Source: Deltaproteobacteria bacterium
Lineage (GTDB): Bacteria; Desulfobacterota; Binatia; Binatales; Binataceae
Direction: 5' to 3'
DNA: 64,000 bases
Assembly (NCBI GenBank): GCA_003135135.1
Contig: PLDK01000003.1
Span: 1,492-65,491 of the forward strand
A program made the position numbers and the translations under genes. This document shows, one piece after another, positions 4,131 through 33,580 of this stretch; the first letter of the stretch is position 1, and every line of letters starts with the position of its first letter. The notes beneath the pieces were generated by a model, which was not told where the DNA came from, made no database searches, and worked only from the letters and a program-made list of their open reading frames with translations.

Positions 4131-5291
4131 TTAGAAAGGGCGCTGAAGGGATGGCCGGTGCGGATTATCGGCGATCCCATAGCGAATGAGCATCCGGTAG
4201 AGCGTTGAGCGCGAAACGCCCAGCAGGCCGGCGGCGCGCCGTCGATTTCCCTCGGTCTCTTCGAGCGAACGCATCAGGGTCTTCTTGACTACGTCATCGA
4301 GCAGGAACCCTGGCGGCTCACCGGCGAAATCTATGCTGGGCAAGTGGCGCGCGACTGGCGCAGCCGGGTAGCCGTTGGCGGACGATTGCTCGTGCGGGTA
4401 CAACAACTCGGCGCCGGTTCCGTCCACGATCTGCTTGGGGAGATCGGATACGCCGATGTTGTTGCTCTCGCTTAAAATCACGGCGCTTTCGATCGCATTG
4501 GAGAGTTCCCGGACATTTCCCGGCCACTGATATGCGCAGAGGATCTCGATGGCGCGACGTGAGATTTCCGAGACATTTTTGCCGAACAGGCGATTGTATT
4601 GTTCGATGAAAAACCCGATGAAGGCCGGGATAGCCTCGCGCCGTTCCCGCAGCGGCGGGATAAAGATCGCCGAAGCGCTCATGCGGTAGTAGAGATCGTC
4701 GCGAAACTGGCCCGCTCTGACCATCGCGTGCAAGTCGCGGTTGGTCGCGGCGACCAAACGGAGATCAACCTTGTAGCAATGCGACGATCCGACCGGCTGA
4801 ACCTCGTGCGTCTCGACCGAGCGCAACAGCTTGGGCTGGAGCTTGAGCGGCAATTCGCCGATCTCGTCAAGGAACAGCGTGCCTCCGTTGGCGGATCGGA
4901 AGTAGCCCTGCGACTCCTCGCGTGCGTCGGTAAAGGCGCCGCGAACGTGGCCGAATAACTGCGACTCGGCCAACGATTCGACGAGGTTGGAGCAGTTCAG
5001 CGTCACGAAGGGACCGTTTGGAACCGGACCCAGCGTGTGGAGCGCGCGCGCGACCAATTCCTTTCCGGTTCCGGATTCGCCTGAAATCAGCACGGTCGCT
5101 TTGTACGGACTGAGCAACGATACCGACTTCAAGACCTTGCGCACCTGCGCTGATCGTACGACCATGCCGCCGAGCCGATCCGCACTGTGCACGAGATGGT
5201 CGAGCGACACCATCTCGCTTGCCCCGTCTCCGATAGGGAGCGTTCCCGATGCGAGATTTCCTGGTGCCAATTGAGTGTCTGCGTGCTGCAC
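4131..5291 (-). CDS. Sigma-54-dependent transcriptional activator (AAA+ plus Fis-type HTH) with no receiver or sensory domain (PspF/HrpS-like)
   Basis: Walker A GESGTGKELVARALH, the GAFTDA (GAFTGA-like) sigma-54 contact motif, and a C-terminal HTH (RAAGLLGVSRSTLYRML). Only about 50 aa precede the AAA+ core. Confidence 0.9.
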   Translation of the reverse strand: MQHADTQLAPGNLASGTLPIGDGASEMVSLDHLVHSADRLGGMVVRSAQVRKVLKSVSLLSPYKATVLISGESGTGKELVARALHTLGPVPNGPFVTLNCSNLVESLAESQLFGHVRGAFTDAREESQGYFRSANGGTLFLDEIGELPLKLQPKLLRSVETHEVQPVGSSHCYKVDLRLVAATNRDLHAMVRAGQFRDDLYYRMSASAIFIPPLRERREAIPAFIGFFIEQYNRLFGKNVSEISRRAIEILCAYQWPGNVRELSNAIESAVILSESNNIGVSDLPKQIVDGTGAELLYPHEQSSANGYPAAPVARHLPSIDFAGEPPGFLLDDVVKKTLMRSLEETEGNRRRAAGLLGVSRSTLYRMLIRYGIADNPHRPSLQRPF

Positions 5292-5664
5292 AGTCCTACC
5301 TCTTTGGCCTGTAGTAACAGGTCAACAACAACTATCAGAGCAAGTGACGGGCCATCGTCTCGGAATCGGGACACTCATTGAACGTTGTCTCTAATAGGCA
5401 CAACTACGCGCCGCGCCGCATGGGGCGCGCGATGCGACATTTCAGTGTCATCGAGCAGGTCAGAATGCGACATTGGTTTGCCGCTGGAGATTGGCGCGGG
5501 TGGCAGCAGCGCAGGTCGATTAGCTATACGCCCAGCAGCCATTCAGCGCCTCGTCAGCGAGTGTGGATAGTCGCATTTTGTCGGAGTTTCAGAGCGTCCA
5601 CATCGAGCGTACAATCCGACGACATGCGGCTAGTCAATAACAAATTCGGATGAGGGATAGGAAT

Positions 5665-22547: not shown

Positions 22548-23804
22548 TCACGACGAGTCCCGCTCCTCAAACTGTTCGTCGGAGGGTTTGACGGCGCGGA
22601 ACTGAATCAGCAATGCGATGTCGTAAATTGTTTTGAGCGCGCCCGCGCAAATCAGCGGCCATCCAAACGACGAATGATTCAGCATCGCGCCCGCCGGCAA
22701 TGGCGCCAGCGCCGCCGCCAGGCTGCGCGGCACATTGGTCACTGTCGCCGCGGCCGCGCGCTCCTCGGGCGGCACCACCGCCATCACATACGACTGGCGC
22801 GCGGGAACGTCCATCTGAGAGGTCGAAAAGCGCAGCAGCAGAAATGCCATCGCCAGCCCCGGGGTCGGCATCAACGCCGCGATGATCAGCATGGCGTTCG
22901 ACGGCAGATGGCTGAACACCATCGTGTTGATTCGGCCGAACCGCGCCGCAAGCGCCGACGAAATAAACTGTGAAAACGAGCTAAGCAGTCCGGCCGCGAA
23001 AAAAAACGTGCCCGCCACTTGAACTGAGAGGTTGAAGCGGCGAAACAGCCACAGCGCCAGCAGTGACTGAATTACGAATCCGCCGCCGAGCGAGTCGAGA
23101 CTGAACAGCGCCGAAAGCCGCAGCACGATTGCCCGCGACTTCGCCAGCGGCGCGGACTTGGCGGGCTGGCGCTCGACTTCGATGGCCGGGGAGAGACGCC
23201 GATAAACCGCGAACGCAATCACCGCGATGATCGAGTATGCGACGAAGCCCGACCGCAGCGCCGGCGCGAGCGCCCATCCATGGCGCGCCGCGAGTATCGC
23301 CGGCACGCCACTGGCCAGCGCGCCAAACGCACCAGCCGTCGCGCCCGCAACGTTGTACAGCGCGAACATCGCGGTCAGATCGCCAGGCTCTGCGGCCTCG
23401 GCCAACGCCGCCTGCTCGACGGGCAGAAACAGGCTGACGTCGCCGGCCGATGGATTCAGCGTGCCGACGACCGCCACCACGAACAGCAGCCAGAAGCTCT
23501 CCGTGGTGGCGAATCCTATTCCCGTCGCCAGCATCAGCGCGCACGCCGCAAGCAGGACTCGACGCCGGCCCAGCCGATCGGTGGCCAGCCCCACCCATAG
23601 CGTTAACGCCGCCGAACCCAGCAGCGTGCCAAACACGATTGCGCCGACGCGGAGCGGATTGAAGCCGATCGCGGTCAGGTAGCTTGGCAACAATATGCTG
23701 ACTGCCCCGTCGGCAAGGCCGCGCAGCGCGCGTGTCGCCAGCAGCAGCTTGGCGTCAGTCGTAGCGCTGCGCGGGAACCATCGACTGATCGGACTCACCA
23801 TCAT
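22548..23804 (-). CDS. MFS transporter (12 TM)
   Basis: Hydrophobicity pattern and an MFS loop motif (G..DR.GRR). Confidence 0.8.
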   Translation of the reverse strand: MMVSPISRWFPRSATTDAKLLLATRALRGLADGAVSILLPSYLTAIGFNPLRVGAIVFGTLLGSAALTLWVGLATDRLGRRRVLLAACALMLATGIGFATTESFWLLFVVAVVGTLNPSAGDVSLFLPVEQAALAEAAEPGDLTAMFALYNVAGATAGAFGALASGVPAILAARHGWALAPALRSGFVAYSIIAVIAFAVYRRLSPAIEVERQPAKSAPLAKSRAIVLRLSALFSLDSLGGGFVIQSLLALWLFRRFNLSVQVAGTFFFAAGLLSSFSQFISSALAARFGRINTMVFSHLPSNAMLIIAALMPTPGLAMAFLLLRFSTSQMDVPARQSYVMAVVPPEERAAAATVTNVPRSLAAALAPLPAGAMLNHSSFGWPLICAGALKTIYDIALLIQFRAVKPSDEQFEERDSS

Positions 23805-24004
23805 CTGGCCAAAACCTAACCCCTAACCCCTTCCCAATCTGGGAAGAGGAACAGTCGCATTGAGATGGTCTATAAGGCGCGCGCCGCCGAGGGAAGCCAA
23901 TAGCATAACGCTCTGTTCGCCGATCCGCTCGTTGTGGCATACTCTTGGCCTCTGCGCGTGTTTTTGAGGAGCAATCGTCCACGGCCATTCGAAGGGAAAG
24001 CTCG

Positions 24005-24289
24005 ATGCGCGTCGAAATCAGCGATGGCGTCATATGGCGGGATCTCGGCGGCGACGTGGTCATCTTGAACGTCGAAACGGGCGTCTACTTCGGCCTCGAC
24101 GGCTCGGGTGGCCAGATATGGCGCGAACTCGTCGAACACGGTTCCATTGAGAAAACCTTCGCCTCGCTAAAGCAGCAGTTCGACGTCGAACCCGATGAGC
24201 TACGCCGCGACCTCGACGCTCTCATGAATCAACTTGTCGAAAAGAGACTCGTGCATCTGATCGCCGAACCTAAAGGTCGTTTGCGATGA
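24005..24289 (+). CDS. PqqD-family RiPP recognition element (lasso peptide B1 protein)
   Basis: About 94 aa, PqqD-like (ILNVETGVYFGLDGSGGQIWRELVE... ). It lies directly upstream of the Asn-synthetase-like cyclase. The ORF extends to 23945, but the RBS-supported start is 24005. Confidence 0.8.
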   Translation: MRVEISDGVIWRDLGGDVVILNVETGVYFGLDGSGGQIWRELVEHGSIEKTFASLKQQFDVEPDELRRDLDALMNQLVEKRLVHLIAEPKGRLR

Positions 24290-24335: not shown

Positions 24336-26288
24336 ATGAGCGGCATCGCGGTCCTCTATCAATGGGACGGAGCTCCAGCGGACCGCTCGACTGTCGAGCG
24401 GATGATTGATGTCATCCCGTACCGCTCGGTTGACGGCTTCGGCGTATGGGGCAACGGCCCGGTCGCGATTGGGCATGCAAAGCTCCAGACGACGCCCGAA
24501 GCTTCGGCTGAGACCAGCCCGTTCGTGGACGAAACCAGCAGGCTCGTTCTATCGATGGACGGGCGGGTGGATAACCGCGACGAACTCACGGCGGAGTTGA
24601 ATTCGCATGGTCATCGTGTTCGCACGGGCACGGACGCCGAGATCGTGCTGCGCGCCTGGCAGTGCTGGGGTACCGAGGCGCCTGCGAGAGTCATAGGCGA
24701 TTTCGCGTTCGCCTTATGGGACCCATCGAAGCGGACGCTCTTCTGTGCCCGGGATCCTTTGGGAGTAAAAAGCTTCTACTACTTCAATGGCCCAGGATTC
24801 TTTCTGTGCGCCTCGGAGCTTCATCAACTGTTCCAGGATCCAAGGGTCGTACGAAGGCCGAACGAGCCTGCTATAGCCGAGATGCTGGTGAGGCTCCCGG
24901 TAGACCGCGAGGAGACACTCTTCGAAGGTGTCAGCCGCCTCGAGCCGGCGCATTATCTGAGCGTGAGCGCGCGTGGCGTGGAACGTCGGCGCTACTACGA
25001 TCTGGACGCCTCACGGGAGATTATCTATCGGAGCGACGACGAATACTCCGATCATTTTCTCTCGCTGTTCAAGGAGGTGATGCGATGCCACCTTCGCAGC
25101 AACAAGGGAGTCGCCTCGGACCTGAGTGGCGGGCTTGATTCATCATCGATTGTCTGTTTGACAGAACAACTACGCCACGACGGCGAAGTGCAACTTCCTA
25201 GTTTTGAAAGCTTCACGGTTCCCTTCGAGACCGGACCCGCAGCCGAGACTGAGTACGTCGAAGAGGTCTTACATAAGTATCCTCATCGCCATACCTATCT
25301 TCCTCCAGGAATGGCCCCGCTCGGCCAGCTCACTGCCCAGGTTGCGCACTATCTGGACTTTCCGGATTTTCCCAACTCTGGATGCACCGATTACACGCCG
25401 ATTCTTGGCAATCGTAACGACCTGAGAGTTCGGCTGACCGGACTGGGCGGCGACGAGTGGTTTTCCGGAACATACTTAGTATATGCAGACCTGGTCAGGC
25501 AGCTTCGCATGATGGCGCTGTTGCGCAGGCTGCGGATTGATCGAAATCCACCGGTCGGATTCGCGCCCTTTCCGGGCTATGCCAGGACCCTTTGGCGGTA
25601 TGGCGTTTTGCCCCTCGTGCCCGACGGCCTTAAGTCGGCGCTCAGGCCATGGCTGCGTCGTCCGCCTGAGCTTCACCCGCTGGTCGTGCCCGCGTTCGCG
25701 GCCAGGACGAAACTTTTGGAGCGCCTGTCCACGAGGCGGCCGTTGCCCCGGAGCCGCAGCTTCGCACAGCAGGATCTGTTCAGGTACTACTTTTCCGGAT
25801 TGCTCTCGTACTCCCTTGAGATGGATGCACGGTGGACCGCGGGCTTTCGACTGGAGGCACGGCATCCTTTCCTGGACCGCCGCATACTCGAGTTTGCCTT
25901 CGCCATACCTGATAACCAACGATTCAGGCCCGGCGTCAGCAAGTTCGTGTTGCGCAATTCGATGCGTGGAATCCTGCCGGAGCGGGTACGGCTGCGGTAT
26001 GATAAGACTCACCTGACAGAGTTATACCCAATGGCGCTAATCGCGCTCGGCGGCGAGCGGCTGTTCGATCGCCTCAACGTCGTCAAAAACGGATGGGTCG
26101 ACGGAGTCGTTGTGCGCAGGCTTTACCGCTCGATGGCTGAGGCGTTTTCTCGCCGCGATCCCTCTTACGCAGAGAATGTCTTCGAACTGTGGAACATCTT
26201 TGCGCTCGAACTCTGGCTCAACGTGGTGTTTCTCGGTATCAGTGAGCCTTTCAAGCACGTGGCCGAAACCACAGAAGCGGCTTGGTGA
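24336..26288 (+). CDS. Asparagine synthetase B homologue: lasso peptide cyclase (C protein)
   Basis: N-terminal Ntn-glutaminase-like domain in which the catalytic Cys2 is replaced by Ser (MSGIA...), as in lasso cyclases, followed by an AsnB adenylation domain (SGGLDSS PP-loop). Length is 650 aa. Confidence 0.85.
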   Translation: MSGIAVLYQWDGAPADRSTVERMIDVIPYRSVDGFGVWGNGPVAIGHAKLQTTPEASAETSPFVDETSRLVLSMDGRVDNRDELTAELNSHGHRVRTGTDAEIVLRAWQCWGTEAPARVIGDFAFALWDPSKRTLFCARDPLGVKSFYYFNGPGFFLCASELHQLFQDPRVVRRPNEPAIAEMLVRLPVDREETLFEGVSRLEPAHYLSVSARGVERRRYYDLDASREIIYRSDDEYSDHFLSLFKEVMRCHLRSNKGVASDLSGGLDSSSIVCLTEQLRHDGEVQLPSFESFTVPFETGPAAETEYVEEVLHKYPHRHTYLPPGMAPLGQLTAQVAHYLDFPDFPNSGCTDYTPILGNRNDLRVRLTGLGGDEWFSGTYLVYADLVRQLRMMALLRRLRIDRNPPVGFAPFPGYARTLWRYGVLPLVPDGLKSALRPWLRRPPELHPLVVPAFAARTKLLERLSTRRPLPRSRSFAQQDLFRYYFSGLLSYSLEMDARWTAGFRLEARHPFLDRRILEFAFAIPDNQRFRPGVSKFVLRNSMRGILPERVRLRYDKTHLTELYPMALIALGGERLFDRLNVVKNGWVDGVVVRRLYRSMAEAFSRRDPSYAENVFELWNIFALELWLNVVFLGISEPFKHVAETTEAAW

Positions 26289-26364: not shown

Positions 26365-27507
26365 ATGTCTTTGATGCTGGATGAGCATCGCCTGTATCTT
26401 TCCGACCTGAACCGAACCTCATTGTTTCGACGGGCGATCAACGCCGTGGTTAAGCCGGGCGACCTCGTGCTCGACATCGGCTGCGGGACTGGGGTGCTTG
26501 GCCTGCTCGCGATGAAGGCCGGAGCCGCAAGGGTGTACCAGATTGACCAATCGCCCATGATCCAGGTCGCCGGCGACGTGGCATCTGCCAATGGTTACGG
26601 GCAAAGCACGATCGGGATTCACGAACGCTCCGGTCGTGCCAGGCTTCCCGAAAAGGCCGACGTCGTCGTTGCCGATCAGCTGAGCCACTTCGGAATTGGC
26701 GCCGGGATGCCCGAGGTATTCAACGACGCCCGCCGGCGTCTCCTCAAGCCGGGCGCCCGCGCGATCCCTCGACGCATCGAACTCTTCCTCGTCCCGGTGA
26801 ATTTTCCCGAGATGTGGGGCATCGCCGGCTTCTGGGAGAAAAGACATGCCGGGCTGAAGATGTCGCCGGCACGCAGCATTGCATTCAATACCGTTTACCC
26901 CAGCGAGAAGAGCCCGCGTCGGAGGCTGGGCAGACCCGCGCGGATGTTCAGCTTTGACCTTACGGACCTGACGCCGGAACGCTTCTCTGCCAAGGCTGCG
27001 ATCGAGGTTTCAGCGGCCGGCGTTATGCACGGTCTCAGCGGATGGTTCGTTGCCGAACTGGCGCCGGGCGTGATCATGACCAATTCGCCTTTTCGCAAAA
27101 GCCGAATCCAACGATCTGCGGTGTTTTTTCCGGTCGAGAAGCCTTTAGCGTTGAGCAAGGGGGATCGCCTGGATATCACGATGACTGCTATTACCGCGCA
27201 GAATCTCCTTAGCTGGAAGGTGGTGGTCTTCAATACTAAAGGTAGGGAAAAGGCACGATATGTTCATTCCACGCTCAATGGGATGTCGCTCATGCCTGGC
27301 GAATTGGCTAAGACCCGTCCGGACTTTGTGCCACACCTGTCGGATTGGGGCGTGGCGCGAAGGTCAGTGGTCAATCTGGCCGATGGAACACGCACACTGG
27401 CTGAAATAGAAAGGGAATTATTCCGAATTCATTCGGCTCTCTTCCCCTCATTGGCGGATGCAGCGGAATACGTCACCAAGGTTCTCATCGCCGACGCGAA
27501 CCCCTGA
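26365..27507 (+). CDS. Class I SAM-dependent methyltransferase with PRMT-like (protein arginine N-methyltransferase-like) motifs
   Basis: Motif I VLDIGCGTGVLGLLAMKAGAARVY, post-I VVVADQLSHFG (compare PRMT IIISEWMGYxL), about 380 aa with a C-terminal beta-barrel-like region. Confidence 0.7.
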   Translation: MSLMLDEHRLYLSDLNRTSLFRRAINAVVKPGDLVLDIGCGTGVLGLLAMKAGAARVYQIDQSPMIQVAGDVASANGYGQSTIGIHERSGRARLPEKADVVVADQLSHFGIGAGMPEVFNDARRRLLKPGARAIPRRIELFLVPVNFPEMWGIAGFWEKRHAGLKMSPARSIAFNTVYPSEKSPRRRLGRPARMFSFDLTDLTPERFSAKAAIEVSAAGVMHGLSGWFVAELAPGVIMTNSPFRKSRIQRSAVFFPVEKPLALSKGDRLDITMTAITAQNLLSWKVVVFNTKGREKARYVHSTLNGMSLMPGELAKTRPDFVPHLSDWGVARRSVVNLADGTRTLAEIERELFRIHSALFPSLADAAEYVTKVLIADANP

Positions 27508-27615
27508 CCGACTTGACCTTGGTCGTCGTCTTTCATAATCTGAACCCGCGTTTTCGAACCAGGTAGCGCATCCGTATCTTGACCAGCTTCGGCGAATCAG
27601 GAAGGGTTATGCTGC

Positions 27616-27642
27616 TTGTAAGAAGCGCAAGTGTGCTATATA
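27616..27642 (+). promoter_or_regulatory. Candidate sigma-70-type promoter (TTGTAA-N15-TATATA) upstream of the lasso precursor gene
   Basis: Sequence match in the AT-rich intergenic region, about 55 nt upstream of the precursor ATG. Confidence 0.35.
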
Positions 27643-27698
27643 AAGAAACGTGACGTTTTGGTGCGAGGCGAGATGCAATTGGAGTTTGGGGATTGGAG

Positions 27699-27869
27699 AT
27701 GATTAAAAAAATTAAGACAGACGCGCAGAAGCCTCGGACGCAGAGCATCAAGAAACCTTATGTCCGTCCTCACCTCGTAGAGTACGGCAACGTGGCAAAG
27801 CTCACAGCTTCAGGCGGCACGGCTGCATCTGACGGGATATCCGGGCAACGCCAAATTATGATAGGCTAG
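27699..27869 (+). CDS. Lasso peptide precursor (56 aa): MIKKIKTDAQKPRTQSIKKPYVRPHLVEYGNVAKLTA/SGGTAASDGISGQRQIMIG
   Basis: Found by manual translation; it is missing from the ORF track. GGAG RBS at 27695. The leader carries the conserved YxxPxLxxxG-x5-T-x motif (YVRPHLVEYG NVAKL T A). The predicted 19-aa core starts at Ser1 with Asp8 as the macrolactam acceptor. Confidence 0.75.
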   Translation: MIKKIKTDAQKPRTQSIKKPYVRPHLVEYGNVAKLTASGGTAASDGISGQRQIMIG

Positions 27870-27971
27870 CAGACCATCGGACTCCCCACCGAGGTTCTTG
27901 CGAGCTGATTCGCGTGGTCAAAATTACAGCCGGCTGCTACGCTTGGGGAAGAGACCGGGTACAATCCGTCG

Positions 27972-29021
27972 GTGGGGCAAATCGAACGGTCTCAACCGGA
28001 ACTTTTCTGGGCATCGCGCTCCGTCACCGACCTGAGCAAAACGAGAATCCCAGACTTTCATCAGCAAGCCTACGGGCTGCAAATCGTTACAGACCTTCCG
28101 CTTCCGGAGCTTCCGGCACTTCGAGTGTCGTCGGTAGGGTCGGCGGTTCGCGCGACTCTAGGCGGACGCTCTCAGCGCCTCCGCCTCAATCCCCGATGGT
28201 ACCTGCGTTCGCGGCTTCCAGGCGGCAGGATTTGGCTCCGCTGCGGCAAGACTCCGGCTGGTTACGTACTTTCCTTTGCTAACATAGCCGACTTTGTCAT
28301 TGACAGCTCCGGAAGCCAGGTAGTCTGCTGCAACGCGAGCAGCGACGTTAGTCTGGAGACCATCCGTCATCTCCTTATAGACCAGGTGCTCCCGCTGGTT
28401 GTAAACCTGCGCGGCCGGGAGGCCCTGCACGCTACTGCGGTCGCGACGCACAGGGGAGTTTGTGCATTCACGGGACCTGCAGGGTCGGGTAAGTCAACGC
28501 TCGCCGCGAGCTTCGTCCTATCTGGGTATCCGCTGGTCTGCGACGATTGCCTGGCGCTTTCCGAAGGCAAAGCGTTTATGGCGCTTCCCGGTTATCCGGG
28601 TTTGCGGCTGTGGCGCGATTCGATCCGGGCGCTTGGCGCAAGTTCACGGAATCTGAAGCCGGTCGCGCACTATACGACAAAATCGCGCTTAAAAAACCAC
28701 TCCCGACGCGCCGACTTCTGCTCGACAACACGCCGGCTCGCGCGCATCTATCTGCTCGAGCGCGCGCGATCGAGCAAACACTCAGCCCGCGTCGCGATCC
28801 AGGAGCTCGCTCCCGGCGAGGCGCTGATGGGGCTGGTCAAGGCGGCCTATAGGCTCGACATCACCGACCGTGCGATGCTGACGCGTCAGTTCCAGTTCCT
28901 CTCCCGCGTTGCCGAGCGCGTTCCGGTCAAACGTCTCATCGTGCCCAATGAATTTTCCGCACTCGCCGAGGTAAGAGCGGCGGTGCTGCACGACTTGAGC
29001 CACCGTCGGCCGCCCCGTTGA
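27972..29021 (+). CDS. HPr kinase/phosphorylase-like protein: putative lasso-peptide tailoring kinase
   Basis: HprK C-terminal domain signature LHATAV...GVCAFTGPAGSGKSTLAASFVLSGYPLVCDD (compare HprK GxSGxGKSE...ADD). Confidence 0.75.
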   Translation: MGQIERSQPELFWASRSVTDLSKTRIPDFHQQAYGLQIVTDLPLPELPALRVSSVGSAVRATLGGRSQRLRLNPRWYLRSRLPGGRIWLRCGKTPAGYVLSFANIADFVIDSSGSQVVCCNASSDVSLETIRHLLIDQVLPLVVNLRGREALHATAVATHRGVCAFTGPAGSGKSTLAASFVLSGYPLVCDDCLALSEGKAFMALPGYPGLRLWRDSIRALGASSRNLKPVAHYTTKSRLKNHSRRADFCSTTRRLARIYLLERARSSKHSARVAIQELAPGEALMGLVKAAYRLDITDRAMLTRQFQFLSRVAERVPVKRLIVPNEFSALAEVRAAVLHDLSHRRPPR

Positions 29022-29133: not shown

Positions 29134-30129
29134 TCAGAACGGAGTCAGCGGAATGCAGGCGGGACTCAACACGCCGTCGGCATCGGCCGTGCCATAGTCG
29201 TTGGTGACCCAGTGGTTGCCTCCGCACGTGCTGCTCGCGTCGTGGAGATCGTGACCGCTTGTAACACCATTGCCCGATGCGCTTATGAGGTAAACCTGAT
29301 CCATGTTGGTCGATTCACTTGCGTCCAGGAAAATTCCGTCACCGTTGTTGCCAGTGACCGCAGCTGAACCAGCGGTAGCACCTTCGGGCGCATCGCCCAC
29401 CTTAACCTCGGAATTGGAGCCGCAACCCCATGTGCAGCCTACGTGCACGCCAGCGCCACCGTTACCGGTAGCGGTGAACACGCTGATCCTCGGTCCGTCC
29501 GAGCCGGTTACGAGCACTCCATCGGCGCCGTTGCCTGAAGCGCTGAAGTCTGAAATGCCGCACTCATCACCGCAGTTATATATGTAAATACCCTGCTTGC
29601 TATTCGCCGTGGAATCAACATTGGTCCATATTTCCGTCGTGCTCTCGCCAGTGCCGTTCATCTCCAGCCCGACTCCGTTGTCGGTCGTGACGATCGCATC
29701 GCCTGCAGTATTACCTCCCTTATCCAACACACCCACTGCAAACCCCGAGATTACGCTGCCACCGCCTTCGATCACGTCCTCATTGGCTGAGCTTTCGACG
29801 AAGATTCCGTCCCCTGTCGAGGTCCCCGTCCCAGTGTACGTGATGCTGTAACCCTGGAGACTAAGGGTGTTGTCGTGGCCACCGAGAGTGAGGCAGGTGT
29901 TGCCGGCGACAGTCTCGGTGAGGTTATTCTGTACCAGATAGATCGTGTTGTTAGCCGTGTACGACCCGCACGTGGTGATACCCATGGGATCTACGGCGTT
30001 CGCAGACGCATGAGCCTTCTTGGCCCAAGCGGCCTGCGGGCCAGTCAGGACAAGCGCGGCCGTCAAAGCAAGAAAAGATACGCCAGGAGCGCCTATACTT
30101 TGAAAAAACCCTCGTTTGATTGCCTTCAT
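29134..30129 (-). CDS. Secreted parallel beta-helix repeat protein (Gly/Asn/Thr-rich, GNG/GDG repeats)
   Basis: Signal peptide followed by low-complexity repeats typical of right-handed beta-helix proteins. Confidence 0.55.
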   Translation of the reverse strand: MKAIKRGFFQSIGAPGVSFLALTAALVLTGPQAAWAKKAHASANAVDPMGITTCGSYTANNTIYLVQNNLTETVAGNTCLTLGGHDNTLSLQGYSITYTGTGTSTGDGIFVESSANEDVIEGGGSVISGFAVGVLDKGGNTAGDAIVTTDNGVGLEMNGTGESTTEIWTNVDSTANSKQGIYIYNCGDECGISDFSASGNGADGVLVTGSDGPRISVFTATGNGGAGVHVGCTWGCGSNSEVKVGDAPEGATAGSAAVTGNNGDGIFLDASESTNMDQVYLISASGNGVTSGHDLHDASSTCGGNHWVTNDYGTADADGVLSPACIPLTPF

Positions 30130-30380: not shown

Positions 30381-30549
30381 TACAAGTTGTTATCCTGTTG
30401 CCCACAAAACGAAAGCCGGTGTCGCCGATAGATACACTTGCAAAGCGCAGTCGCTGGCCGCTTTCAGTCTACAATTTGTCATCCGGTTGTTATGCTCTTG
30501 CGGACGAGAAGGAAACGGCTGTCACCGATCGATACACTTGCAAGGCGCA
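30381..30549 (+). repeat. Tandem direct repeat (about 69 + 80 nt copies, roughly 85% identical). It overlaps the start of the nucleotidyltransferase gene.
   Basis: Copy 1 is 30381-30449, copy 2 is 30470-30549. Both encode the peptide [KR]KR.[VL]SPIDTLA[KR]R, but in different frames. Confidence 0.7.
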
Positions 30550-31802
30550 CTTGGTCCCAGCTCGCGCCTGGGGCTATTGTTGACAACTCTGTGGAATTCG
30601 ACGCCCTCCTCGACCTTGCCGGCTTGTCCATCGAAGCGGCGCTCGTGCTGTGCTGCGCGACAACTGCGGCCACGCCCGTGCGCACGGAACTGGCGGCCGA
30701 CCTTGCGCCGCGCGTGCGCAGTTGGGACCGCGTCGTCGATATCGCCAAACGTCATGCGGTGCTCCCGTTAGTACATCGCTATCTGAAACTCGAATGTCCG
30801 ACCGCGGTTCCGGGAGAGGGGCTTGCGAAGCTGCGGACGCAGTGGCAGCTGATCATTCTCTACAACCGTCATCTGACCGCCGAACTTGTGCGCCTGATGG
30901 GCCTGCTGAAAGCGGCTGGAGTTCCGGCTGTCACCTTCAAGGGTCCGGTACTTGCCGCGATGGCATACGGATCGATCGAACTTCGCCAGTTCAGCGATCT
31001 GGATATTCTCGTGCGTCAGACTGACCTGCCCCGGGTCGCCGAAATACTCACCGCCGAACGATATTTGTCGCCACATACCAGGCGCGAAGGTCTCGCCACC
31101 GGCTACTTTCAGGAGTACGAGGACGCCTTCGTCGGACCCGACGGGCTGGGCGCCGTGGACGTTCATTGGAACCTCACGCCGCGGTCGTTCCGTTTCGCCC
31201 CCGACGAGGAAGGCCTGTGGCGGCGCGCGCACGAGGTCGATCTGGAGTTCGGCAAAGCGATGGCGATCGCGCCCGACGACCTGTTGCTGTACATCTGCGT
31301 TCACGCCACGAAGCATGGATGGGTCACGCTCGGATCGATCTGCGATGTCGCCGAGACCGTTCGCGCGCGTCCGGAAATCGATCTGATGAGGATACTCGAC
31401 GAGGCAACCTCACTCGGGAGCCGGCGGATGTTCCTGACCGGCATCTGCCTGGCGCACGAGCTGGTCGGCGCGCCGATTCCCGCCGATCTTGTCACGATAG
31501 CTCGCGACGACCGCGCCGCCCGGGCATTGGCAGGACGCGTGGCGGGGCAACTGTTCAGCGGAGCCACGCAGGGACGGGCAGACTTCGATCCGTGGGCGGT
31601 TCCGATCCGCTCGATCGAGGGCGCACGCGCGCGAATGCGCTACATCGTCCGCCGAATGCTGGCGCCGACGATGGGCGACTACGAACTCATCCCGCTGCCA
31701 GCAGCGCTCTTTCCGCTCTACTGGGTGATTCGGCCGTTTCGGATGGCAGTGCAATACGGGCCGCGGCTGGTCCGCGGCTCTTCGACCAGTTCGAACGCGT
31801 GA
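30492..31802 (+). CDS. Uncharacterised nucleotidyltransferase-family protein (PF14907-like), a type often linked to kinase-containing lasso clusters
   Basis: About 436 aa, with the architecture and motifs (GS...DLDILV) of the 'uncharacterised nucleotidyltransferase' family. The start is taken at MLLRT (30492) inside repeat copy 2; the ORF track start is 30438. Confidence 0.55.
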   Translation: MLLRTRRKRLSPIDTLARRTWSQLAPGAIVDNSVEFDALLDLAGLSIEAALVLCCATTAATPVRTELAADLAPRVRSWDRVVDIAKRHAVLPLVHRYLKLECPTAVPGEGLAKLRTQWQLIILYNRHLTAELVRLMGLLKAAGVPAVTFKGPVLAAMAYGSIELRQFSDLDILVRQTDLPRVAEILTAERYLSPHTRREGLATGYFQEYEDAFVGPDGLGAVDVHWNLTPRSFRFAPDEEGLWRRAHEVDLEFGKAMAIAPDDLLLYICVHATKHGWVTLGSICDVAETVRARPEIDLMRILDEATSLGSRRMFLTGICLAHELVGAPIPADLVTIARDDRAARALAGRVAGQLFSGATQGRADFDPWAVPIRSIEGARARMRYIVRRMLAPTMGDYELIPLPAALFPLYWVIRPFRMAVQYGPRLVRGSSTSSNA

Positions 31803-32356: not shown

Positions 32357-33580
32357 ATGCGCCTACATGAGTACTCGGCGAAAGGATCGCCGGTCGCGAC
32401 TGCGAGGCAGAATCTTGGCGCCCAGCCGGCGGACGCAACGTCCGAGTGGTTGAGCCTGGCGGATCTTGCGCACGGGTCGGAACGGATTGGCGGGGCGGTG
32501 GTGCGGTCGGCGCACGCGCGCAAAATACTCAAAACCATTTCACGCTTGAGTCCGTACAAGGCAACGGTCCTGATTCACGGCGAATCCGGAACCGGGAAGG
32601 AACTGGTCGCGCGCGCGCTGCATACGATGGGCTCGGCGCCAAACGGTCCGTTCGTGACCTTCAATTGCTCCAACCTGGTCGAGTCGCTGGCAGAGTCGCA
32701 GCTTTTCGGTCATGTGCGCGGCGCATTCACCGATGCCCGCGAGGATTCGCTCGGCTATTTTCGCTCCGCCAACGGCGGAACTCTATTTCTGGACGAAGTC
32801 GGCGAGCTTCCGCTGCGCCTGCAGCCCAAGCTGCTGCGCGCGCTCGATACCCACGAGATTCAGCCGGTCGGTTCTTCACGCACCTACTCGGTTGATATTC
32901 GGCTGGTCGCGGCAAGCAATCGCGACCTGCACGCGATGGTCAAGGCGGGGCAATTCCGCGACGACCTCTACTACCGCCTTAACGCGGCGGCAATCCTGGT
33001 TCCGCCGCTTCGCGAGCGGCGCGAGGCAATCCCGGCCTTCATCGCTCATTTTATCGAGCACTTCAACCGCCTGTTCGGCAAAGATATAAAGCTCGTTTCG
33101 CGGATCGCCTTGGACGCACTGTACGCCGACCCGTGGCCCGGCAACGTCCGCGAGCTCAGCCATGCAATCGAGAGCGCGGTGCTGATGACCGAAAACGATC
33201 GTATCGATCTCGACGACCTGCCTTTGCGCCACCACGATGCGAATCCGGAAGTGGTGGGCGAGTCGGTCGAGAAGGTGCTGCAAAACGGCGGGCTCAATCT
33301 CGACGGCGGGCCCAATGGCGACGGGATTGACTGCGAGAAGGCGTCGAAGCGGTGCTTCGAAATGGCGAGCTGGCCCTACTCGCTCGACGCGGTAATCCGC
33401 GAGGCCTCGAAAGTCGCGCTGGTTCGCGCGCTGGAAGCGACCGAGGGCAATTGCCATCGCGCGGCCGAGTTGCTGGGCGTATCGCGCTACACGGTTTACC
33501 GAATGCTGAACCGGTATGGCCTGGGCGAAGGCCATACCTACAGGACGCTGCGCAAGTCGACTGTACGCCGCGCGTCTTGA
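32357..33580 (+). CDS. Sigma-54-dependent transcriptional activator (AAA+ plus HTH) with no receiver domain; paralogue of 4131-5291
   Basis: GESGTGKELVARALH, GAFTDA, and a C-terminal HTH (RAAELLGVSRYTVYRML). The N-terminus is short. Confidence 0.9.
   Translation: MRLHEYSAKGSPVATARQNLGAQPADATSEWLSLADLAHGSERIGGAVVRSAHARKILKTISRLSPYKATVLIHGESGTGKELVARALHTMGSAPNGPFVTFNCSNLVESLAESQLFGHVRGAFTDAREDSLGYFRSANGGTLFLDEVGELPLRLQPKLLRALDTHEIQPVGSSRTYSVDIRLVAASNRDLHAMVKAGQFRDDLYYRLNAAAILVPPLRERREAIPAFIAHFIEHFNRLFGKDIKLVSRIALDALYADPWPGNVRELSHAIESAVLMTENDRIDLDDLPLRHHDANPEVVGESVEKVLQNGGLNLDGGPNGDGIDCEKASKRCFEMASWPYSLDAVIREASKVALVRALEATEGNCHRAAELLGVSRYTVYRMLNRYGLGEGHTYRTLRKSTVRRAS

Follow-up and report, generated by a model that had tools for sequence, protein, structure and literature searches.

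A 56-codon open reading frame in the window, by which we mean the whole 64-kb stretch of DNA that was analysed, is a real and conserved lasso-peptide precursor gene (A). It sits in a lasso cluster together with genes encoding a B1 protein, a cyclase (C), a PRMT-fold methyltransferase, a kinase (K) and an N protein, all on the same strand. We consider it likely that the ORF encodes a class II, disulfide-free lasso precursor belonging to a kinase/nucleotidyltransferase-type cluster in the genome of a Candidatus Binatus (Binatota). The precursor itself is a fresh member of an already known peptide type and, as such, an ordinary gene-finding result. The cluster is a modest variant, set apart by the PRMT-fold methyltransferase, by having no B2 leader peptidase in cis and by a host from an uncultured phylum.

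Lasso peptides form compact scaffolds that withstand proteases and have antibiotic and receptor-binding activities. Thousands have been predicted and, to our knowledge, few have been characterised outside the Proteobacteria, Actinobacteria and Firmicutes. The window adds a lasso cluster in the uncultured phylum Binatota, for which our literature search found no paper describing one. It also illustrates how a length cut-off on ORFs can miss a short RiPP precursor. If the methyltransferase modifies the peptide, it would add both a modification type and a bacterial use of the PRMT fold, and the variable position of B2 genes in this clade provides a natural test of leader peptidase sharing in trans.

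A conserved precursor gene

The first-pass annotation, which was made from the letters of the DNA, had described an unlisted 56-aa lasso precursor gene at 27699-27869 (+), and the coordinates, the translation and 24 homologues all agree with that description. The gene begins with an ATG at 27699 and ends with a TAG stop codon at 27867-27869 (56 codons), and its translation is MIKKIKTDAQKPRTQSIKKPYVRPHLVEYGNVAKLTASGGTAASDGISGQRQIMIG (56 aa). Starting instead from a TTG at 27693 would give a protein of 58 aa (two additional residues); aligning the DNA of 15 related loci showed an invariant ATG and a TTG that varies. The 24 homologues were found in a search of 5.8 billion proteins with E values of 2.6e-28 to 2.2e-7. 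Peptide P0001 is identical to the window precursor and is present on five other contigs, which argues against a frameshift or an error of assembly.

Alignment of the family showed residues Y21, P24, L26, V27, E28, Y29, G30, A33, K34, L35, T36, S38 and D45 to be invariant. Over the 23-codon leader/ring block KKP...SGG, comparison of the window with 13 loci gave pS values of 0.11-0.85 versus pN values of 0.02-0.18, a sign of strong purifying selection on the leader (pN/pS about 0.05-0.2). The profiles NF033521 (lasso_leader_L3, counted at E<=0.1) and NF033528 (lasso_cyano) matched all 25 of 25 family members, with a best E of ~4e-5. The window precursor itself scored 17.3 bits against NF033521, under the curated cut-off of 19, and 18.6 bits against NF033528, under the curated cut-off of 33.

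The GC content falls to 0.475-0.53 at 27500-27900 versus ~0.6 in the flanks, in keeping with the AT-rich island noted around the gene at first reading. Rfam returned nothing between 26000 and 30500, no repeats were found in the precursor region and RNA folding 3' of the precursor was not significant (z = 0.27), results on which reading the region as an RNA element, a repeat or a terminator was rejected. The sole terminator-like hairpin (27505-27525) lies upstream of the precursor. A fortuitous motif match in a random or non-RiPP reading frame might be argued from the shortness of the ORF, which puts it under the usual gene-calling cut-offs, and from the lack of a Pfam match to the window precursor. 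Against this stand the 24 homologues, the codon-level selection, the invariant start, the fixed synteny beside lasso enzymes and the lack of any Rfam family, repeat or significant RNA structure in the region. The chance of such a coincidence is very small, the homologues, the alignment and the codon selection having effectively refuted it already.

Leader, cleavage register and predicted ring

The leader peptide (27699-27809, +; 37 aa, M1-A37) has YVRPHL at -17 to -12 and ends in Thr-2/Ala-1. Residues Y21, P24, L26 and T36 fall at -17, -14, -12 and -2 counted from Ser38 and thereby follow the spacing rule of lasso leaders (Tyr-17, Pro-14, Leu-12 and Thr-2; PMC10368454). All four residues are invariant in the family. 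The lasso leader motif with Thr-2 reported in the first-pass annotation held when checked against the consensus. The spacing of YxxPxL and Thr-2 places cleavage between Ala37 and Ser38, the core start that had been proposed, and the resulting Ser1 is invariant.

The core peptide (27810-27866, +, with the stop codon extending the segment to 27869) is SGGTAASDGISGQRQIMIG (19 aa), with a predicted Ser1-Asp8 macrolactam followed by an 11-residue tail. The Asp8 codon is GAC at 27831-27833. The pairing of a small first residue with an Asp or Glu at core positions 7-9 is that of lasso precursors. Across the precursor family Ser1 and the ring Asp are invariant, so that the acceptor required by the Ser1-Asp8 ring first predicted from the letters is present. 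The ring region contains a one-residue indel within the family and the Asp is found at core position 8 or 9. The predicted ring is 8-membered (S1-D8) in the window, P0001, P0003, P0004 and P0013 and 9-membered (SGGSxxPxD) in most other relatives. Lasso rings span 7-9 residues and hence both sizes fit. The core has no Cys, as is the case for class II lasso peptides. Its predicted monoisotopic masses are 1804.874 Da for the linear form and 1786.863 Da for the lasso form. The core C-terminus is Gly and a conserved C-terminal Ser is absent from the precursor family, whereas 22 of the 25 members have a hydroxyl residue, Ser or Thr, at core position 4.

The lasso gene cluster

The overall lasso reading was borne out by the neighbouring genes, since a PqqD-type RiPP recognition element (RRE) and a lasso-type cyclase are encoded 1.4-3.8 kb upstream of the precursor on the same strand. 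B1 (23945-24289, +) is a PqqD-family RRE (Pfam PqqD, E 1.5e-16) that matches NCBIfam lasso_PqqD_Bac with an E of 1.5e-14, under the cut-off of that family; translation probably begins at the Met of MRVEIS, at about 24005. It adjoins C (24336-26288, +), an Asn-synthetase-like lasso cyclase composed of Pfam Asn_synthase and GATase_7 domains, and this adjoining pair is the arrangement of lasso clusters. The best NCBIfam match of C is NF033535 (lasso isopeptide cyclase; E 3.5e-130, 435.6 bits, cut-off 525).

Downstream of the precursor, K (27972-29021, +) is an HPrK/PEPCK-fold P-loop kinase (a weak match to HprK-related kinase A; TIGR04352, E 1.8e-9) having the Walker A motif GPAGSGKST. Foldseek with the AF2 model of K (pLDDT 86.7) found PEPCK and the HPrK/P catalytic domain, and as modelled K has the kinase fold used by known lasso kinases. 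An HPr-kinase-like gene of this sort is characteristic of clusters for phosphorylated lasso peptides, and of the 86 clustered sources, the window included, 71 have K together with the cyclase. The listed K start (27972-28120) is likely too early: homologues cover ~85% of the ORF and residues 1-23 have pLDDT <50. The real start is probably ~50 codons downstream. The N protein (30438-31802, +) is PF14907 nucleotidyltransferase-like (Pfam NTP_transf_5, E 2.2e-56) and is syntenic in relatives. Its listed start (30438-30590) is probably also too early, homologues being 403-419 aa versus 454 aa for the window ORF. A literature search on PF14907 gave nothing relevant.

Between K and N on the opposite strand lies a gene for a secreted parallel beta-helix protein (29134-30129, -) having a signal-peptide-like N-terminus, a weak TIGR03804 match and no Pfam family. 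The gene keeps this position in 21 Binataceae-type loci other than the window, and L017 has three copies of it (related loci are given L numbers); its membership in the lasso cluster is uncertain. An MFS transporter (22548-23804, -; Pfam MFS_1) is encoded divergently from B1. It adjoins the cluster in most close relatives (86-97% identity) and is absent from several others. This transporter is a possible, although uncertain, exporter; the window cluster contains no dedicated ABC exporter.

Cyclase relatives of 64-90% identity come from MAGs named Candidatus Binatus, Binataceae or 'uncultured delta proteobacterium', and those of 30-45% identity come from Acidobacteriota, Nitrospirota, Chloroflexota, Cyanobacteria and others. 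The synteny of the cluster is conserved in Binataceae MAGs, and precursors sharing the leader core adjoin the cyclase across phyla. B1, C, the methyltransferase, A, K and N are all intact ORFs with 86-95% amino-acid identity to their counterparts in L007 and L025. One Binataceae-type MAG (L021, 9785-15777) encodes three tandem cyclase paralogues (43%, 38% and 37% identity to window C) beside one kinase gene.

A PRMT-fold methyltransferase tracks Met/Cys-rich tails

The gene between C and the precursor (26365-27507, +) encodes a PRMT-fold SAM methyltransferase, a putative tailoring enzyme with PrmA and PRMT_C matches and a C-terminal three-helix extension. By sequence (phmmer) it is closest to PRMT6, PRMT2 and PRMT1 (E ~1e-19). 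Its AF2 model (pLDDT 91.7) can be superposed on type-I PRMTs across ~320 residues (Foldseek E 1e-26, target-normalised TM 0.75-0.83) and comprises the Rossmann and beta-barrel parts of the PRMT fold; the three-helix extension is conserved and falls outside the PRMT superposition. The guanidinium-binding loops of type I PRMTs are lost. The double-E loop has changed from SEW...E to ADQ...A/G and THW has become RIQ, and the methyltransferase family as a whole does not keep E/E or THW at these positions. Many cores in methyltransferase-bearing clusters contain neither Arg nor Lys. Methylation of core Arg14 was rejected on these two grounds, the lost catalytic loops and the many associated cores that lack Arg or Lys. 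The C-terminal domain was also considered as an RRE and this was not supported: hhalign against the B1 alignment gave a probability of 0.5%, Pfam searches of 19 members gave only isolated matches of E>0.02 and the AF2 model has three helices there and lacks the beta-sheet of an RRE.

At least 511 homologues of the methyltransferase were found, annotated in their sources as 'L11 methyltransferase' or 'PRMT1'. The gene was in a lasso cluster in 27 of 27 locus copies, and the same held in three of three independent look-ups of distant homologues (45-46% identity). The archetypal gene order, B1-B2-C-A-MT-K-N (MT, methyltransferase), is seen in L086-L088.

The presence of the methyltransferase goes with the composition of the core. 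Met or Cys occurs in the predicted tail at 21 of the 23 loci with the methyltransferase versus 4 of the 20 without it (Fisher p = 2e-6, uncorrected for phylogeny), and 12 of the 23 methyltransferase-bearing loci end in -CL. L015, L039 and L086-L088 fit this pattern. Met-rich tails, mostly ending in Cys-Leu, accompany the methyltransferase in the window and in L011, L015, L017, L020, L022, L027-L029, L033, L034, L038, L045, L065 and L086-L088. In L001 and L009 a gene encoding an FAD oxidoreductase now stands in place of the 5' part of the methyltransferase gene, of which a pseudogene remnant survives downstream; the L001 core lacks Met. The remnants of the methyltransferase C-terminus lie at L001 9637-9874 and L009 14614-14956 and have 57-83% identity to window residues 230/264-380.

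We tentatively propose, as a reading that is possible rather than probable, that the PRMT-fold methyltransferase is a fresh tailoring class that has lost Arg recognition and is found only in kinase-type lasso clusters. The enzyme would alter the Met/Cys-rich tail (...M...CL-COOH) by a chemistry so far unseen among lasso peptides, for example S-methylation or C-terminal modification, and the window would be a derived B2-less satellite needing another cluster for leader cleavage. A literature search found no report linking a PRMT-fold or L11-methyltransferase enzyme to lasso clusters, and in a 2022 review the lasso methyltransferases are StspM/LasF-type O-methyltransferases and PIMT homologues only (PMC9266682).

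The missing B2 leader peptidase

No PF13471 transglutaminase-like B2, a usual component of lasso clusters, is encoded in the 64-kb window. Neighbour clustering gave a family of ~150-aa proteins carrying the ...HAWLE motif of lasso B2 proteases at 43 loci, the window not among them, and L086-L088 confirmed that this family is PF13471 in equivalent clusters. An HMM built from the 43 B2 sequences and run with --max at E<=10 matched 47 of 85 related loci, with B2 also being present in L086-L088, and the same search of the 64-kb window gave no match. An H[AS]W regular expression applied to all six frames of the window likewise found nothing, and Pfam found no Transglut_core3 in ten small ORFs across the window. 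A B2-N fusion has been reported for some Firmicutes; fusion of B2 to the window N protein was rejected by the lack of a match to the same HMM.

The position of B2 varies within the close clade. The order is B2-B1-C in L013 and L018, and in L008, L012 and L016 it is B1(-) B2 C, with B2 directly upstream of C. The minus-strand B1 of the latter three loci is a genuine PqqD protein (L008 9244-9579, L012 9095-9373 and L016 8986-9264; 40-44% identity to window B1). Among close relatives the DNA preceding the cyclase gene has been swapped more than once. In L017 B2 lies five kb downstream, whereas in L037, L004 and L005 it is found only in an adjacent second lasso cluster. These tandem clusters (L037 2187-13374, also L004 and L005) read B2-C'-A'-K'-N'-ABC and then B1-C-MT-A, the first core being GTTGSHTDKGSHAGIHGQG. 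The second unit, B1-C-MT-A, has no B2, K, N or transporter of its own, an arrangement that suggests the tandem clusters share enzymes, and both precursor types in these loci have the same ...VAKLTA cleavage region. B2 was absent within +-10 kb in L001, L007, L009, L010, L014, L015, L025, L029 and L030.

Since the window does not encode B2, either the cluster is inactive or its leader must be cut in trans. The shared ...VAKLTA region and the selection seen on the leader between B2-less loci (pN/pS ~0.1 for the window versus L007, L014, L025 and L001) favour the supply of B2 in trans for the window precursor. The opposing reading of a decaying or silent remnant, in which B2 was lost and the precursor, if made at all, is never matured into a lasso peptide, draws on the absence of B2 from the window and from within +-10 kb of ten related loci, on the lack of a dedicated ABC exporter and on the methyltransferase pseudogenes of L001 and L009, which show that such clusters erode. 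However, the six cluster genes of the window are all intact and close to those of L007 and L025, the leader selection just given is that of B2-less loci, the promoter-like element is conserved and B2 is mobile within the clade to the point of residing in a neighbouring cluster. We therefore regard a remnant as unlikely.

Less likely still is a B2-independent lasso pathway, in which a protease other than B2, either a housekeeping enzyme or a cluster protein such as the beta-helix protein, cuts the leader. Although about ten species-level genomes keep the B2-less arrangement and a conserved secreted protein sits inside the cluster, the beta-helix protein is also present in the B2-bearing relatives L008, L012, L013 and L018, domain searches of the cluster proteins detected no protease and the Thr-2 signature recognised by B2 is strictly conserved. 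Supply of B2 in trans is the reading adopted below.

Comparison with known lasso systems and a proposed pathway

Close parallels are the paeninodin (PadeK), ThcoK, SyanK and pseudomycoidin (PsmK/PsmN) systems, which share with the window a split B1, an Asn-synthetase-like C, an HPr-kinase-like K, a PF14907-type N and a YxxPxL...T-x leader (PMC8498205, PMC9266682). The clusters of these systems differ in that they encode B2 and an ABC transporter, both lacking from the window cluster, and do not have a PRMT-fold methyltransferase. Paeninodin-type kinases act on a C-terminal Ser, whereas the window core ends in Gly and offers no such phosphate acceptor. The bsf cluster of Bradymonas sediminis (BsfA/B1/B2/C/D/K/N) comes, like the window, from a Gram-negative bacterium once filed under 'delta-proteobacteria'. 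Both clusters have K and N genes and an 8-membered ring closed on Asp8 (predicted in the window). BsfA has Ile-2 and Gly1 in place of the window Thr-2 and Ser1, and bsf encodes B2 and D and no methyltransferase, whereas the window lacks B2 and has the methyltransferase. The mature bsf peptide has never been observed, and the window product is likewise a prediction.

SAM methyltransferases inside lasso clusters are also known from the lassomycin/StspM type, which makes a C-terminal O-methyl ester, and from the PIMT type (the aspartimide of cellulonodin-2 and lihuanodin). StspM acts on the linear precursor and was modelled on mitomycin 7-O-methyltransferase, the others being PIMT homologues (PMC9266682). 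In contrast, the window enzyme has a type-I PRMT fold plus a three-helix extension and is without the PRMT Arg-binding residues.

In the pathway that we propose, the PqqD protein B1 would bind the YxxPxL leader and K would modify the linear precursor. The paeninodin mode is inapplicable to K because the core has no C-terminal Ser. A lasso kinase, BsfK, phosphorylates the ring hydroxyl of Ser3 with the help of B1, on which the reaction depends (PMC10368454), and by analogy with that site in BsfA a ring hydroxyl is a possible phosphate acceptor, most likely Thr4 or Ser1 or a similar residue. The methyltransferase, the presence of which tracks Met or Cys in the tail, probably also acts on the linear precursor before cyclisation. 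A B2 cysteine protease supplied in trans would then cut the leader after Thr-2/Ala-1, and C would link the amine of Ser1 with the side chain of Asp8, closing the ring around the 11-residue tail and giving the predicted threaded form. N may add a sugar or a nucleotide to the phosphate, as does PsmN; precedents for phosphoglycosylation by K plus N have been described (PMC8498205, PMC9266682). The product could leave the cell through the MFS protein or through a transporter encoded by another cluster.

Promoter-like element and ribosome-binding site

A promoter-like sequence, TTGTAA-N15-TATATA (27616-27642, +), lies upstream of the precursor, with TTGTAA at 27616-27621 and TATATA at 27637-27642, just as first described. 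The element is conserved as TTG[C/T]AA-N15-TATATAAAG in the window and in L001, L007, L008, L010, L014 and L025, and its conservation in six relatives makes it probably functional. A sigma-70 scanner having a spacer range of 16-18 did not call the element at 27616-27642 because its spacer is 15 nt. The first-pass annotation had also assigned a GGAG ribosome-binding site. GGAG is indeed present, twice, but its placement is poor. The copy at 27681-27684 would serve the non-conserved TTG start, whereas that at 27695-27698 abuts the ATG and is a doubtful Shine-Dalgarno sequence owing to the 0-nt spacer.

The -35-like hexamer sits within an imperfect palindrome, CTTG(C/T)AAGAAGCGCAAG (27612-27631), that is kept in the closest relatives and may serve to bind a regulator at a site that overlaps the promoter. 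At 32357-33580 (+) the window encodes a sigma-54 enhancer-binding protein that lacks a receiver domain; its gene is syntenic with the cluster and its relevance is uncertain. Control of the cluster by this neighbouring protein through sigma-54 was rejected, there being no TGGCAC-N5-TTGC site in the cluster intergenic regions and fewer matches in the window than in shuffles. A 63%-identical paralogue of this activator is encoded at 4131-5291 (-), and about 48 nt upstream of its start is a near-consensus sigma-54 promoter-like site with one mismatch, TGGCCCGTCACTTGCT (5339-5354, -).
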